The notes: a model not told the origin generated them from the sequence alone. Positions 28,510 through 34,820 are shown, counted from the stretch's first letter. The stretch: 64,000 nt of DNA from Escherichia coli (GCF_024502345.1 NZ_JALDNN010000001.1), one strand, 5' to 3'. Numbers and translations: made by a program.

Positions 28510-28788
28510 ATGAAACGTAACCTGATAAAGGTGGTAAAAATGAAGCCTTATTTTGCTGCTTTGATGTTATCAGTCTCTGTTCTTCCTGCTTATGCTGGTC
28601 CGCTCGGTACTGCTGATAAAGCCGACCTACCGCAAAGCAATGTCTCCAGCCCAATGATGGCCCAGTCGCTCAGGCAACCAGACCTGCAACCGATATCGAC
28701 GGACAGTAAGACAGAATGTTTTCGCCTTTACACACCAGATCGCAAACCGGGGGTGAACTGCGTTCCTGATGGCTCAACAGGCCATTAA
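28510..28788 (+). CDS. yjbT: Small secreted protein of unknown function (YjbT-like); start may be at 28540
   Basis: 92 aa ORF; from Met11 reads MKPYFAALMLSVSVLPAYA then GPLG... (signal-peptide-like); position between psiE and yjbH. Confidence 0.6.
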   Translation: MKRNLIKVVKMKPYFAALMLSVSVLPAYAGPLGTADKADLPQSNVSSPMMAQSLRQPDLQPISTDSKTECFRLYTPDRKPGVNCVPDGSTGH

Positions 28789-28834
28789 GAATGAGGGTGC
28801 CAGTGATTGCGAAAACTGGCACCCTTCCCATGAC

Positions 28835-30931
28835 TTAGCGGAAATTGACGCTACGGTCGCTGGTCATGTCATACAACTGGAACTTACGCCCAAGTTGCTG
28901 ACCACCGTCACGCGTCAGCGGCGTCCAGCCAATCGCCGCACGGCTGCGTGTCGGGCCAGACGAGAAGAGATCCAACGGTACCGAGACATACACGCCTTTG
29001 GTGAAGTCCCCTTCGCCGTACTCCTCTTTCGAAACGTTGGTGATCGTGGCATAGCCACCCACCACCACGCCGCTGTCAAAGCGTTTAGCGATCTCCAGCG
29101 TGCCGCCTTTATCCCCTGCCAGATACTGCCCGACGCTGGCTTTCACCAACACGTCCTGGGCGAAAGATGGCGTCCAGTAGGCGGTCAGATGTCCGGTTTT
29201 CACGCTGTAGTCGGTGAATTTCATCATATCTTTTGCACTACGCCAGTCGCGCTGTTTAACGTAGTTGGCATCCAGACCAAACGCCCAGTTACTGTCCAGC
29301 GGACGATACAACACTTCGGCCCCCGCACCGCCAAACATGGTTTCGAGATAACCTCCATAGACCTGACCGTAGAAGCCGTTGCCCAGATGCTGGAAGTAGT
29401 TGGCTTGCAGGTTATTCACATAGACATCGTTCTGCACATACTCGCGCACATGGGTACGAACGCGCGGTAAGTGCGAGTCCTGCGGCGGATTGGTGTAGTT
29501 AAACTTGTCGTAGTTGTTGGCAAGATTTGCAAACAGGCTGCCGGTGGTCAGCAGATGGTCCGTCAGCCACAAATCTGCCGTTCCCATCACGCCCAGCTGA
29601 TACATGTAAAAGTTTTCCGGGCCACCGACCGACTGGTTCAGCACCGGATCGATATGGAAATCAAAGCGTGATTTGTCGATATACCAGCCCTGCTCGGTGG
29701 ACTGCGGAACCACTGGCTCGACGCGTTTTTGCGCCAGCTTCGTTTCGTGGCCCAACGGCTCTCCGGCGAGATGATTTTTCAGGCTGGCGACATCGGTTTC
29801 CGTCGTCACCTGCGGCATGTTAAGACGATTTTCCGTAATGCGGATCGTTTTGATCCCATCCGGCAGATCGTTCATCACGATCCGATTCGCACGGATGATC
29901 CCTTCGCGCGAATCACGATATTTCACCTGCTCGCCGGTAACATACAGCGTATCGCCTTTCGCCTGGATCTGTGGATCGGCAAGTCCAGCATTGTATTTCA
30001 ACAGCGTTAACTGATTCGCCACCACCGAATGCTGCAAAATGGCATCCTGCGGCTGCGGTTGATATTGCGGGCGGGCGTTATCGTTGTAAGACGGGCGCAG
30101 ATCGTTAAAGTTGGTGCGCAACGTAACGCCAAACATAAAGGTGTTGCCACGTTCATAGCTAAGGTTAACGTCGGCCCAATCGGTAACGCGATAAATCGCA
30201 CCGACGTTAAACTTACTTTTTTGCTCCAGCTTCCCGGCAAAATCCTGCTGATAATTATTGCCTTCATACTCCAGTTTCAGGCGCAGCGGTTGCCAGGGCG
30301 TCTGGTATTCCACGCCGCCAAACAGTGAGGCAGGACCGTGGAAAATCTGGCTACCGTCGATAGATCCCGCCTGTTTGTAGCTGTTATCGCGATAGCAATA
30401 TTTATCACTGGCTGAACAGAGCGGATTTTTCACATTACCGCTGGTGCCCAAATATCCCCAGCCCAGGCCGAGCGTAAAATCGAACGGCCCCCAGGCTTTG
30501 CTGGCAACAAGATATTCCGCATCAAACAGCCCCGTACCGCCGATATCCCGCGCACCAACCGCCACTTGCGGCAGCCAGTAACTCTCTTCCCACAAACGCA
30601 GTTTGAGATCGAAGGCTTTATCTTTATACGTTTGATCGCCAGAGAACGCTTCGACGCTGCTGTACTGCCGGGTGCGCACGTCGGTGTAGCGCAGCGTTGT
30701 TTCCAGCCACGGGAAGAGTTGCACTGAAGCTGAGTAATAACGGTACTGATCGTTATCGCGATAGTTCAGACTCAACTCCCCTTCCCGTGCCATACGCGCG
30801 GTGGGCGTTTGTAATAATCCTACGCCACCGAAATCCGACTGCGACGGACCAATGGGCGCAGGATATGTTTCGCCGTAGCAAGCTGTGCTAATGCCCAGCG
30901 CCAGTAAGCTAAGCAGATGTCTTTTTTTCAT
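28835..30931 (-). CDS. yjbH: Outer-membrane-associated protein YjbH (yjbEFGH exopolysaccharide locus)
   Basis: 698 aa [59 protein letters not shown]... Confidence 0.9.
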
Positions 30932-31668
30932 TATTGAGGTATCCGCTGCGTCAGAGTCTGAAGAATGTCGGCGTTAAGGGCATCAGGCGTCTCACTCCAG
31001 ACGGAGTCCGCGAGGCCAACATAAATAATGCTGCCGGGCATCGGCTCTACGTGACGCTTGTTCCAGTAAGCCACCGGCGCTTTTTGCGTGCGTCCGTCCG
31101 GGTAAACCACCCACGCGTAGCTGCGATCCGCACCGCTGAGCAGGCTCTGGTCAGAGAGATAGCTCGCCACGTCGCGACCTGGAGTGAATGGCTGCTTGCC
31201 AGGACGGCTGATAAGCCCGAACAACGTGACCGTGGACGGCGGTGGTCCGACCCACAGCGTGTAGTTGCCCTGCAACGGCGGGTTACCGCGTTCGGCAACG
31301 CGGACGATATCGGGATCAAGATTGATTTTTTGCCTGCCCGTCACTTTCAACGCCTGAATTTGCTGGCGTAAGGCGTTAATCGCGGCGGCATCGTCGGCGC
31401 TGGAATCTGCAGCCAGTTCTGCCAGCCGTGTCAGCAACGCCTGCTGCTGCCGCAATGCTGCCGCCGTTGCCAGCTCTTCGCTAATCACCGCACCAGGCCA
31501 CCAACTGTTTGCCAGCCGCGGCTGGCCTACCAGATCGATTAAATACTCTGCGCCCGTCAGCGTTTTGGCCTCACTGCTGCCATTGCTGAATACCTTGACG
31601 GTTCCCGCCGCGAAGACCGATGACGCCCCCACACTCAAAATCAATGCGACAATAGTTTGTTTAATCAT
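30931..31668 (-). CDS. yjbG: YjbG periplasmic protein (yjbEFGH operon)
   Basis: 245 aa [37 protein letters not shown]...; stop overlaps the yjbH start. Confidence 0.9.
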
Positions 31669-32303
31669 TGTTTTGCCGCCTTGATGAGAGTGGTTTTCAC
31701 CGGGAAATAATCCGCGCCGAGATACTGTTCCGACTGGCGAATTTGCCCTTCGCTGTCGATCCAGTAGCGGTTATGCCAGCGCGCCTGGTCGGTGGAGACT
31801 TCTTCGTCCAGCACGCGAACCGGGGTTTCATCGCTGCCGACCTTGACGGTATCGGTGCCATCCCATTTGAAGACTGAGCGTGCGGTGGCGTAGCGTACCT
31901 GCTGGTACTCGGTCCAGCCCATCGTGCGCGTCCATGTTGCACCATCAACAATTTGTGCGGGTTTAATCAGCGGGTCGGCGGCAAGGTTATTCACTTCAAT
32001 CAGGTTGTCGCCGCCAAGCAAAGTCTTCACCAGACGACCATGTTGTGTGACAAGAGTGGCTTGATCCTGAGTGACCCATTTTTGTTGTCCGTCTTCAGCG
32101 AAGGCCAGCACCACAAACAATTGCGGCCCGCCATTAAGCTGCATGTACTGGCTGGCGTAGGGCATATTTTGAATATCATCGTCCGTCAGCTGTACGCCTG
32201 GCGTGCCGAACAGACTGTCCCACAGTGAATTGCCCAGCTCTTTAGTCGTGGCTGAACAGGCCTGTAATAGCAGGCAGATAAGAATGAGTGCAGGTCGCTT
32301 CAC
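31665..32303 (-). CDS. yjbF: Lipoprotein YjbF (yjbEFGH operon); probable GTG start
   Basis: ...VKRPALILICLLLQACSATTKELGNSLWDSLFG... with lipobox LLQAC; ORF track start at 32333 is probably an extension. Confidence 0.8.
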   Translation of the reverse strand: MKRPALILICLLLQACSATTKELGNSLWDSLFGTPGVQLTDDDIQNMPYASQYMQLNGGPQLFVVLAFAEDGQQKWVTQDQATLVTQHGRLVKTLLGGDNLIEVNNLAADPLIKPAQIVDGATWTRTMGWTEYQQVRYATARSVFKWDGTDTVKVGSDETPVRVLDEEVSTDQARWHNRYWIDSEGQIRQSEQYLGADYFPVKTTLIKAAKQ

Positions 32304-32416
32304 GACTCTTCTCCAGAGGGGCAGAATAACCACACCGGAGTGTGGTTATGGTAAATCCCTTCATACTTCAAGCCACAGATGCAATGACTCAAATTATTTT
32401 GGGGATACATACTTTA

Positions 32417-32659
32417 TTACTGGGTACTGGTGGTCGTGGTTGTGGTGGTCCCGGTATTAGAACCATCACCGCCACCGGTTGCCGCGAGCGCGACACCCAC
32501 CGCCGAGCTTACGGTGCTGACGCTGGTCGCGGAGGAACTCCCCGCCGAAACCGACGTTGCTGCCGACCCTGCCGCTTCGCCCACCTGTACAGGTGCAGCC
32601 CACGCAGAAGTCGCCGCAAGCGCAGATATGGCAAAAATGCCATACAGAACTTTTTTCAT
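32417..32659 (-). CDS. yjbE: Small secreted Ser/Thr/Gly-rich protein YjbE
   Basis: 80 aa [80 protein letters not shown]. Confidence 0.85.
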
Positions 32660-32965
32660 AACAATTTCCCTTCATTGAATGAATGGAGATTTACCCAAAA
32701 ACATTTCGGGCGGGATCGAGTATACACAACTAAAGCATGCGAATTACGGCGCGGGGAATTAGCGATGGCGTTTTAGGATAATTGGAATGAATATCAAATA
32801 TAAGTTTCAGCTTATATTTAAATAACAATAAAAATCACAAACTTAAAATAAAAACAAAAGTAATTAATCTGCGTATTTTCCGAAATAAACAACGATTAAA
32901 AATCTATTTTAGGATTAACCTCACGGTATGATTTCCGTTAAATCACAGACAAGGGGATTTATCTG

Positions 32966-32996
32966 ATAAAAAAATGCCGACATAACGTCGGCATTG
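32966..32996 (-). terminator. Rho-independent terminator downstream of pgi
   Basis: Minus strand AATGCCGACGTTATGTCGGCATT hairpin followed by TTTTTTT. Confidence 0.7.
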
Positions 32997-33067
32997 TTAT
33001 TAAGGTTATTTAATCAATCGTGCTATGTATTAATTGCCGAATACGATGTACATATCGGCATCGACCT

Positions 33068-33146
33068 GTAGGCCTGATAAGACGCGACCGCGTCGCATCA
33101 GGCATCGGTTGCCGGATGCGGCGTGAACGCCTTATCCGGCCTACAT
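33068..33146. repeat. REP cluster downstream of pgi
   Basis: GTAGGCCTGATAAGACGCGACCGCGTCGCATCAGGC and GCCGGATGCGGCGTGAACGCCTTATCCGGCCTAC. Confidence 0.8.
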
Positions 33147-33170
33147 AGCGGCATCAGGCATGAACGATGA

Positions 33171-34820
33171 TTAACCGCGCCACGCTTTATAGCGGTTAAT
33201 CAGACCATTGGTCGAGCTATCGTGGCTGCTGATTTCTTTATCATCTTTCAGCTCTGGCAGAATACGGTTCGCCAGCTGTTTACCCAGTTCCACGCCCCAC
33301 TGGTCGAAGGTGAAGATGTTCAGGATCACGCCCTGAGTAAAGATTTTGTGCTCATACAGCGCAATCAACGCACCCAAGCTGAACGGAGTGATTTCACGCA
33401 GCAGGATGGAGTTGGTCGGGCGGTTACCTTCGAACACTTTGAACGGCACCACGTAGTCAAGCGTTGCCGGATCTTTACCCTGATCGCGATATTCCTGCTC
33501 AACCACTTCGCGGGATTTACCAAACGCCAGCGCTTCGGTCTGAGCAAAGAAGTTAGACAGCAGTTTCTGGTGATGATCAGAGAGCGGGTTATGGGTGATA
33601 GCCGGGGCGATGAAATCGCACGGTACCATTTTGGTTCCCTGATGGATCAGCTGATAGAACGCGTGCTGACCGTTAGTGCCTGGTTCACCCCAGATAATCG
33701 GGCCAGTCTGGTAATCCACAACGTTACCGTTACGGTCAACATACTTACCGTTGGACTCCATATTGCCCTGCTGGAAGTACGCCGCGAAACGGTGCATATA
33801 CTGGTCATACGGCAGAATCGCTTCAGTTTCCGCACCAAAGAAATTGTTGTACCAGATGCCAATCAGCGCCAACAGTACAGGCAGGTTTTTCTCGGCAGGC
33901 GTGGTGGAGAAATGCTTGTCCATCGCGTGTGCGCCAGAAAGCAGTTCAACGAAGTTATCAAAGCCGATGGAGAGAACAATCGACAGGCCAATCGCTGACC
34001 ACAAAGAGTAACGGCCGCCAACCCAGTCCCAGAACTCGAACATGTTGGCGGTATCAATACCAAACTCGCCAACGGCTTTGGCATTGGTGGAGAGCGCCGC
34101 AAAGTGTTTCGCAACGTGTTTTTCATCACCCGCCGCTTTCAGGAACCAGTCACGCGCGCTATGGGCGTTGGTCATGGTTTCCTGAGTGGTGAAGGTTTTA
34201 GATGCTACCAGGAACAGGGTAGTTTCCGGGTTTACTTTTTTCAGCACTTCCGCGATGTGGGTGCCATCGACGTTAGACACAAAGTGCATGTTCAGGTGGT
34301 TTTTGTACGGACGCAGTGCTTCGGTCACCATGTACGGGCCGAGGTCAGAACCGCCGATCCCGATGTTCACTACGTCAGTGATTGCTTTGCCGGTATAACC
34401 CTTCCACTCACCGGAGATAATCGCTTCCGAGAAGGTTTTCATCTTCTCCAGCACCGCGTTGACTTCCGGCATTACGTCTTTGCCATCAACCAGAATCGGG
34501 GTATTGCTACGGTTACGCAGCGCTACGTGCAGCACGGCGCGGTTTTCAGTGCGGTTGATCTTCTCGCCAGAGAACATCGACTTAATCGCGCCCGCCAGAT
34601 CGCACTCTTTCGCCAGATCTTGTAATTTCGCCAGCGTCTCTTCAGTGATGCGGTTTTTGGAGTAATCCACCAGCATCTGATCGTCGAAGGTTGCGGAGAA
34701 CTTAGAAAAACGATCGCCGTCTTTAGCAAAAAGATCGGCGATCGTAACGTCTTTCATTTCATCGAAGTGTTTCTGTAGTGCCTGCCAGGCAGCGGTCTGC
34801 GTTGGATTGATGTTTTTCAT
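33171..34820 (-). CDS. pgi: Glucose-6-phosphate isomerase
   Basis: [58 protein letters not shown]... 549 aa from the internal start. Confidence 0.95.

Follow-up and report, generated by a model that had tools for sequence, protein, structure and literature searches.

The yjbEFGH operon of Escherichia coli was analyzed in a 64,000-nucleotide stretch of contig NZ_JALDNN010000001.1 (assembly GCF_024502345.1), hereafter called the window. The operon occupies positions 28835 to 32659 on the minus strand, as established by open reading frame (ORF) listing, direct reading of that strand and the RefSeq annotation, all of which agree with the coordinates and strand that an original prediction, made from the sequence alone, had given for the four genes. 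The genes are:

32417..32659, minus strand: yjbE, an ORF for an 80-amino-acid (aa) precursor; Pfam PF11106, expectation value (E) = 5e-33; protein identical to WP_000757333.1
31665..32303, minus strand: yjbF, with a GTG start at 32303; 212 aa; Pfam PF11102, E=6e-64
30931..31668, minus strand: yjbG, a periplasmic GfcC-family protein of 245 aa; Pfam PF20616 and PF06251
28835..30931, minus strand: yjbH, an outer-membrane protein of 698 aa; Pfam PF06082, E=1e-270

The region is the known, Rcs-regulated yjbEFGH operon of Escherichia, a stand-alone paralogue of gfcABCD, and it helps polysaccharide reach the cell surface. All Pfam scores lie far beyond the cut-offs, and the genes follow the order of the module, namely a small secreted Ser/Thr-rich protein, a YjbF/GfcB lipoprotein, a GfcC-family protein and a YjbH/GfcD outer-membrane protein. 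For yjbF, the longest ORF extends to an upstream GTG at 32333, the annotated start being the GTG at 32303. RefSeq gives the order pgi-yjbE-yjbF-yjbG-yjbH-(yjbT), and the pgi-yjbEFGH synteny is retained in nearly all of the 80 loci, from different Enterobacteriaceae species, that were collected for cross-species comparison. Within E. coli, the locus is carried by 5413 of 5426 complete genomes (a 4.5-kb stretch, matched over at least 80% of its length). The top full-length match to window positions 28700 to 33250 among these genomes is 98.7% identical, and three shared positions in YjbG distinguish the copy in the window from the three E. coli strains compared. The source strain is accordingly not among these genomes, and the window may derive from Shigella or from an Escherichia lineage that they do not cover. 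The operon has been described as Rcs regulated, serving the production of an undefined exopolysaccharide, and homologous to gfcABCD (PMC5461412); exopolysaccharide production by the yjb genes is attributed to Ferrieres et al. 2007 by papers that cite that study.

The operon had been predicted to be tightly packed, which is true of yjbF, yjbG and yjbH and not of yjbE, from which yjbF is separated by a spacer of 113 nucleotides (nt). The two overlaps of stop and start codons that had been proposed to couple translation, at 31665-31668 and at 30931, proved exact on direct reading:

31665..31668, minus strand: ATGA, the yjbF stop and yjbG start, a 4-nt overlap
30929..30933, minus strand: TAATG, the yjbG stop and yjbH start, a 1-nt overlap with base 30931 in common

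Bacterial operons very often contain overlaps of 4 nt or 1 nt, so a single instance means little, and the comparison was therefore extended across species. The yjbF/yjbG spacing was -4 in 72 of 81 loci (-1 in 7 and other in 2), and the yjbG/yjbH spacing was -1 in 54 loci, -4 in 18, +2 in 8, 0 in one and other in one. Across about 80 species the junction forms switch among ATGA, TAATG, TGATG and TAATAATG, yet the spacing stays within 2 nt of zero. In the gfc paralogue of K-12, gfcB and gfcC overlap by 4 nt and gfcC and gfcD by 1 nt; distant homologous loci overlap too, one by 1 and 4 nt (L090) and another by 8 nt (L089). The predicted Shine-Dalgarno pairing of yjbH is the weakest of the four genes, at -3.3 kcal/mol, compared with -5.3 for yjbE, -6.4 for yjbF and -6.9 for yjbG.

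The search for the YjbH family covered 1.84 billion cluster representatives and returned 2660 of them at E ≤0.001. Of the 150 best, 51 are extended at the N-terminus by more than 200 aa, with a detectable likeness to YjbG in 33 of them, and a Pfam scan of 8 proteins found GfcC domains N-terminal to the YjbH domain in 7. As seen, YjbG and YjbH often form a single polypeptide whose domain order is the gene order. These fusions are widespread, which suggests that equal dosage of both proteins matters.

Alternatively, the overlaps might be incidental compaction, with every gene translated on its own, as the general frequency of such overlaps and the reasonable Shine-Dalgarno sequence of yjbG itself would allow. 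We consider this very unlikely: although the sequence has turned over, near-zero spacing persists in the paralogue and in nearly all of the roughly 80 species, the distant loci overlap as well, and the YjbG-YjbH fusions are taken as a sign that a 1:1 ratio matters. Neither the overlaps nor the proposal of coupling is new to the literature. Larson et al. 2021 noted overlaps of 1 to 4 bp, "also seen in homologous operons," proposed translational coupling and reported that a GfcB-GfcC heterodimer binds GfcD (PMC8592465). Translational coupling of yjbF, yjbG and yjbH is thus supported by the conserved overlaps, the gfc paralogue, the weak yjbH Shine-Dalgarno sequence and the published binding, and the fusions are the support added here.

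The YjbH homologues also vary at the other end, 13 of the best 150 having a C-terminal extension of more than 150 aa. Three homologues (P0084, P0107 and P0126) end in a PAP2 phosphatase domain, and some YjbH homologues pair PAP2 with N-terminal GfcC domains. The fusion of a phosphatase acting on lipid or sugar phosphates to the barrel would be consistent with a substrate linked to lipid.

YjbE has a signal peptide with predicted cleavage after AWA, which leaves a mature peptide of 59 aa rich in Ala, Ser, Thr and Gly. Its conserved end is located as follows:

32420..32476, minus strand: conserved YjbE C-terminal motif, with a run of seven Thr (T7) at 32429-32449

The original prediction read this end as TTTTTTTST, encoded by ACC-type repeats and prone to slippage. 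The T7-ST run is present, although the last residue is Q, and the codons are mostly ACC, albeit mixed with ACA and ACG (ACC ACC ACA ACC ACG ACC ACC, with at most two identical codons adjacent). Tandem Repeats Finder detected the tract only at a minimum score of 30, with 78% matches, and it is not a long perfect repeat. Across about 75 species the tail reads GDGSNTG-T7-ST-(Q/R) almost without exception, Kluyvera-like species having TTTTTSTTT, and the Thr codons vary freely among ACC, ACG, ACA and ACT. Since T7 stays fixed while its synonymous codons vary, purifying selection acts on the protein and on the exact length of the run, and such strict selection on GDGSNTG-T7-ST-Q marks the tail as a functional element.

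The comparison of tract length across strains, which had been proposed as a check on slippage, yielded few variants. The 121 bp centered on the tract are at least 99% identical in 5118 of 5420 E. coli genomes (94.4%), and two genomes sampled from the approximately 5% below that identity carried substitutions only. The length variants found amount to about 32 of the 5420 genomes (approximately 0.6%, a band-based estimate), too few for length differences to be called frequent, and all are expansions. A T9 allele, in which the 6 bp ACAACC are duplicated, was seen in 29 genomes that share one background and in at least 2 from another (for example, L004:552-800), and a T12 allele, from a 15-bp duplication, occurs in the single strain Res13-Lact-ER07-18 (L086:52-309). 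Synthetic queries for the four simplest single-codon gains or losses matched no E. coli genome. In the protein collection, an exact look-up of YjbE length variants failed to find even the canonical sequence, and a homologue search returned mostly frameshifted or truncated entries.

The idea that the tract acts as a contingency-type repeat, modulating YjbE through ready changes in length, is therefore largely refuted, and we regard it as highly improbable. It could draw on the detection of a period-3 array at the lowest score, on the rare T9 and T12 expansions (about 31 genomes and one genome) and on a laboratory-evolved mucoid clone that had gained 9 bp in yjbE at a position the study does not give (PMC8540638). 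Against these stand the mixed codons, the constancy of T7 in nearly all species amid varying synonymous sites, the uniformity of the region in E. coli and the empty single-codon queries. The Thr tail is, as far as comparative sequence can tell, a constrained functional motif among the most constrained parts of the locus and not a mutable repeat.

GfcA ends in ...SGDGGSHNTSTTTSTTR, and a small protein encoded beside a YjbH homologue of 50% identity ends in ...GGDGDGTSASATSTATTTATSTTTSTTR; a GDG motif followed by a Ser/Thr-rich C-terminus seems, from these sequences, to be a feature of the family. AlphaFold2 predicted no fold for YjbE alone (predicted local distance difference test [pLDDT], 50.6; predicted template modeling score [pTM], 0.17). 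YjbE is most likely a secreted, disordered peptide that serves as a recognition, cargo or acceptor element for a machine made of YjbF, YjbG and YjbH.

The segment between yjbE and yjbF contains a conserved structure within a variable spacer:

32304..32416, minus strand: yjbE-yjbF spacer, 113 nt, differing in length and content by lineage
32326..32349, minus strand: stem-loop AUAACCACAC-UCCG-GUGUGGUUAU, just 5' of the yjbF GGAG and GTG, identified by folding

In most genera the spacer is about 63 nt long; strain EC-1639 also has 63 nt, by a 50-bp deletion, and ABU 83972 has 186 nt, the distal part of the spacer being the variable one. The stem-loop, with a predicted energy of -14.8 kcal/mol (z=-5.6), is virtually unchanged among about 60 species; a palindrome resembling a repetitive extragenic palindromic (REP) element (-16.7 kcal/mol) replaces it in about 10 species of the Citrobacter/Enterobacter group, and the gfcA-gfcB spacer has a stem-loop at the same place (-16.2 kcal/mol). 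The Shine-Dalgarno sequence of yjbF, GGAG, lies at 32311-32314, and the GTG start is retained in all but one of the species compared. By analogy with known intra-operon elements, the stem-loop probably stabilizes mRNA or terminates transcription leakily, which would uncouple yjbE from yjbFGH. A compendium of 1035 expression samples lends this uncoupling weak support, since yjbE, and none of the other three genes, groups there with the rcsA, wza and wca genes (PMC13401006). An insertion of IS1 between yjbE and yjbF activates Rcs and colanic acid production (PMC8117528).

Three further features of the spacer were recorded. About 50 extra nt at 32351-32410, present in Escherichia and some Citrobacter, form an additional predicted hairpin that most genera do not have. 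In ABU 83972 (L003:1121-1306; also L033) an insertion of about 72 bp, which resembles an enterobacterial repetitive intergenic consensus/intergenic repeat unit element, lies upstream of the conserved hairpin. A 36-aa ORF at 32300-32410, whose stop overlaps the yjbF GTG and which would extend coupling to yjbE, was rejected, being interrupted by TAG in K-12 and by insertion or deletion elsewhere.

The control region upstream of yjbE comprises the following features:

32660..32731, minus strand: near-invariant block (-72 to -1 in a 74-species alignment) with a -10-like TATACT, an approximately 50-nt 5' untranslated region (5'UTR) and the start context
32771..32788, minus strand: second conserved block, ATTCCAATTATCCTAAAA, from the conservation profile, with ATCCTAAAA in common with the box in the next line
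32910..32923, minus strand: RcsAB-type box TGAGGTTAATCCTA, 251 to 264 nt upstream of the yjbE ATG, found by its core pattern
32973..32995, minus strand: pgi intrinsic terminator, from a terminator scan, the sole covarying structure in the region
33071..33141, unstranded: REP pair resembling a bacterial interspersed mosaic element, 66% GC, just after pgi; Rfam naRNA4 at 79.5 bits (gathering score, 59.5)

The AT-rich leader of about 500 bp that had been proposed for 32660-33170 did not stand. This is the entire 511-bp pgi-yjbE intergenic region (38.6% GC overall), a composite of the REP pair, the pgi terminator, an AT-rich core of 233 bp (32732-32964, 30% GC) and the near-invariant promoter block. 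The pgi terminator is the true upstream limit of the yjbE control region, and the REP pair lies outside it. Most other genera have no REP pair, and their intergenic region is about 365 bp. The two strands of the pair score 79.5 and 54.8 bits with naRNA4, but REP-derived families match many REP pairs, so this match says little about a specific RNA.

Within the control region, the -10-like TATACT at 32719-32724 is the best conserved promoter-like element, and its -35 is poor; a good -10 with a poor -35 suggests an activator-dependent promoter. The core promoter would accordingly be placed, from conservation, about 60 nt from the yjbE ATG. The only sizeable ORF of the region, a 32-aa frame with a TTG start (32730-32828), was rejected, being intact in just 4 of 74 species. 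The roughly 50 nt before the yjbE ATG can form two small hairpins, the second of which covers the Shine-Dalgarno sequence GAAGGG, and conservation of 32660-32712 in the 74 species is far above that of synonymous sites of the genes. Ribosome profiling placed yjbE among the genes whose translation efficiency falls most at pH 4.4 (PMC10746267). Together, the hairpins, the conservation and the pH effect point to an unexplored translational control of yjbE.

The box TGAGGTTAATCCTA has all six core positions of T-AG-----TC--A and is the single core match in the intergenic region. The core occurs at the homologous place in 73 of 74 species, and among these 73 sites the six core positions are invariant and positions 2, 5, 8, 12 and 13 vary. 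At one position the box departs from the crystal-structure-based RcsB box, TN(G/A)GAN4TC(T/C)NA (PMC7913699), and it lies upstream of the predicted promoter, where a box of the RcsAB regulon would be expected. Expression of yjb is reported to depend on RcsA and RcsB (PMC5461412; PMC5651002), and rcsA, wza and wca are among the genes with which yjb is co-expressed (PMC13401006; PMC13098195). The Rcs control assumed in the original prediction is thus borne out by the literature and by a phylogenetically footprinted RcsAB-type box, and the search of the leader suggested there succeeded through the core pattern, the strict consensus search remaining empty. We conclude that TGAGGTTAATCCTA is a candidate RcsAB operator that probably activates the yjbE promoter; the second block, ATTCCAATTATCCTAAAA, may be a half-site, judging by the shared letters.

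On the opposite strand, the same region matches a family of small RNAs:

32856..33005, plus strand, the one opposite yjbE: match to STnc430 (Rfam RF02053) at 77.7 bits (gathering score, 47)

An unannotated gene in the leader had been named beforehand as a finding that would count against the original prediction, and in form this match supplies one, although we judge its status as a gene to be unlikely. The match spans the RcsAB-type box and the pgi terminator, and its best conserved part is the box. A real small RNA gene homologous to STnc430, transcribed away from yjbE and ending at the pgi terminator, would explain the high score, the promoter-like ATAACA-16-TAAAAT at 32822-32849 that ends 7 nt before the match, and a terminator hairpin able to act on both strands. 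Yet the -35 of this putative promoter is poorly conserved, and RNAalifold on 46 species found no conserved or covarying structure in the STnc430 region except the terminator hairpin. The region is conserved as short motifs between variable, indel-rich sequence. In supplementary file 4 of Sittka 2008, moreover, STnc430 is a computational Salmonella candidate in the pgi/yjbE spacer, marked "np," with 0 reads in both libraries (control and Hfq co-immunoprecipitation), and our literature search found no paper reporting its expression. We therefore think a gene here quite improbable. The match is most likely conserved regulatory DNA plus a common terminator, a reading drawn from its conservation pattern, and annotators should be cautious, since Rfam STnc430 may describe promoter DNA and not an RNA gene.

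The products of the three coupled genes were compared with known structures. YjbF is an outer-membrane lipoprotein (lipobox LLQAC) that matches PDB 2IN5 (YmcC/GfcB; E=3e-43), YjbG matches PDB 3P42 (GfcC; E=4e-55), and YjbH has no sequence match in PDB. AlphaFold2 was run on mature YjbH tethered to YjbE through (GGGGS)6, with an alignment that mixed paired and unpaired sequences. The model reached a pTM of 0.79, with the YjbH part mostly above 85 pLDDT and the linker and YjbE at 23 to 31, devoid of secondary structure. Its YjbH part comprises 12 strands (mature residues 32 to 254), an alpha/beta domain (281 to 397) and 13 strands (403 to 649), that is, two barrels as judged from secondary structure and confidence. 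Foldseek of the YjbH model against PDB gave generic barrel matches only, with template modeling (TM) scores of at most 0.2. A two-barrel YjbH has also been predicted in two published studies, in agreement with the present model (PMC8346858; PMC11494523), and by fold recognition its N-terminal barrel has been likened to FapF and its C-terminal barrel to the porin PgaA (PMC9603273). That YjbH itself acts in export is a proposal based on modeling only (PMC11494523). Mutations in yjbF, yjbG or yjbH switch on Rcs and colanic acid production (PMC8117528; PMC8540638), which is in keeping with an envelope machine that, when lost or unbalanced, disturbs the outer membrane.

From the observed gene identities, overlaps, conservation patterns and domain fusions, we infer how the operon may work, including its transcription start, RcsAB binding, the coupling itself, the effect of the stem-loop and the role of YjbE. 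Transcription would begin about 50 nt upstream of yjbE, from a promoter with a TATACT -10 and a poor -35, and would be activated through the RcsAB-type box about 190 bp further upstream, in the 233-bp AT-rich control region that starts at the pgi terminator. YjbE would be translated from its own ATG and Shine-Dalgarno sequence. The stem-loop in the 113-nt spacer that follows would shield the yjbE mRNA segment or partly stop transcription, giving a different, probably larger, amount of YjbE. Translation of yjbF would start at its GTG, and with yjbG and yjbH chained to it by ATGA and TAATG, ribosomes ending one gene would restart on the next, so that YjbF, YjbG and YjbH would be made in near-equal amounts. 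The YjbF lipoprotein, periplasmic YjbG and the two-block YjbH would then form one outer-membrane complex, as suggested by GfcB-GfcC-GfcD. As a whole, this account of a known operon with a short-5'UTR promoter, an RcsAB-type box, two translation regimes and a YjbFGH complex appears to us likely.

Several observations weigh against parts of this account, beginning with the operator. The full consensus TAAGAATATTCCTA has no match near yjbE at up to 3 mismatches, and TGAGGTTAATCCTA fits 10 of the 14 textbook consensus positions. The core pattern is not enriched in the window (17 found versus 23 expected), so a lone match proves little, and comparative conservation is the much stronger argument. 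RcsAB boxes usually lie nearer the promoter, about 100 bp upstream, whereas this one is about 190 bp from the predicted -10; being unusually far upstream, it leaves room for a second, upstream start. The proposed start about 50 nt before yjbE, and with it the short 5'UTR, is placed by conservation. Being invariant, the stem-loop offers no covariation as evidence, and the U-tract after it is weak, so it may not terminate transcription. In the tethered model YjbE does not dock onto YjbH, although such modeling neither supports nor excludes docking. Finally, deletion of the whole operon also causes mucoidy, in an rpoS mutant, according to work cited in PMC8540638, so a toxic build-up of YjbE cannot be the sole cause of Rcs activation.

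The distance of the box bears on whether yjbE instead has a leader of at least 150 nt, made from a second Rcs-dependent promoter near the box, as in the colanic acid operon. Conserved blocks spread over the whole 300 bp, and the strong translational change at pH 4.4 would also suit control by such a leader. In that stretch, however, a sigma-70-like site was not found on the yjbE strand, an ops/JUMPstart element is absent from 32660-33170 with one mismatch allowed, the best conserved promoter-like element is the one at 32719-32724, and the sequence upstream of 32965 is pgi terminator and REP pair. A long leader consequently seems unlikely to us, and we keep the short 5'UTR. As a separate observation, the octamer GGCGGTAG, with one mismatch allowed, occurs 88 times in the whole window against 41.7 expected from shuffles, an excess that is probably a codon-usage effect (GGC GGT) unrelated to ops elements.

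A more speculative extension makes YjbE no accessory factor but the cargo or acceptor of the YjbFGH machine, a mucin-like peptide whose tail is recognized or bears glycan, with the Yjb exopolysaccharide being a (glyco)peptide at least in part. This is conceivable, though on balance doubtful. It fits the layout because a separate first gene behind a stem-loop, followed by three coupled genes, would yield much cargo and little machine. If it were true, cargo left behind in the periplasm would account for part of the Rcs activation in mutants of yjbF, yjbG or yjbH.

Earlier publications already cover the operon, its Rcs control, its Thr-rich first protein and its overlapping genes, so in itself the finding alters nothing, and the additions made here are incremental. 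They consist of testable coordinates, namely a candidate RcsAB operator (32910-32923), a likely core promoter (32719-32724) and a stem-loop (32326-32349), and of the widespread YjbG-YjbH fusions, which support a fixed-ratio complex encoded by coupled genes. Because the seven-Thr tail is among the most constrained parts, it should also be a useful starting point for working out what YjbE and GfcA do.

At the other end of the operon, one more element was read directly:

28795..28824, unstranded: hairpin GGGTGCCAGT-N10-ACTGGCACCC, between the convergent yjbH and yjbT

This hairpin is the probable end of the operon; the terminator scan missed it because its loop exceeds 8 nt and its T-run is weak. 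The neighboring yjbT (window 28510-28788, plus strand), convergent with yjbH, encodes an uncharacterized periplasmic protein of 92 aa (Pfam PF17089), and RefSeq places a hypothetical protein of about 47 aa, WP_000487766.1, just past it.

Set beside known systems, the yjb locus combines familiar parts. Stem-loops and REP elements within operons set unequal expression, as in malE-malF, and the yjb spacer resembles these elements in having a stable stem-loop directly after a small, presumably abundant first gene and a REP-like palindrome at that position in about 10 species, a likeness that is an analogy only. The RcsAB box of capsule promoters, reportedly described by Wehland and Bernhard in 2000, shares with the yjbE box the six-position core and the conservation pattern of a protein-binding site; the yjbE box differs in fitting 10 of 14 consensus positions and in its unusual distance from the predicted promoter. 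With the outer-membrane export proteins and porins (Wza of the outer membrane polysaccharide export [OPX] family, PgaA, AlgE and FapF), the system has in common Wza-like domains in YjbG/GfcC and, in the YjbH model, two blocks of strands, the first with 12, on either side of a central domain, whereas no solved structure found by Foldseek has the two-barrel architecture of YjbH (TM ≤0.2).

The closest relative is gfcABCD, the accessory module of the group 4 capsule. The yjbEFGH operon is not a group 4 capsule operon proper, the true gfc operon lying elsewhere in K-12. The gfc operon has the wza-wzb-wzc homologues gfcE-etp-etk directly downstream, whereas yjbEFGH has none and is flanked by pgi and yjbT; yjbEFGH belongs to the Rcs regulon, unlike gfcABCD; and the polymer of the Yjb system is undefined (PMC5461412), set against the group 4 capsule of gfc. 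YjbE has 80 aa and a single fixed T7 run, while GfcA has 101 aa and Thr-rich stretches spread along its length, and both end in GDG-(S/T-rich)-R/Q. Overall, the two operons encode the same four protein families in the same order (YjbH/GfcD 65%, YjbG/GfcC 42% and YjbF/GfcB 39% identical) and follow the same plan, with a 106-nt gfcA-gfcB spacer containing a hairpin, a GTG start on gfcB and then overlaps of 4 nt and 1 nt.

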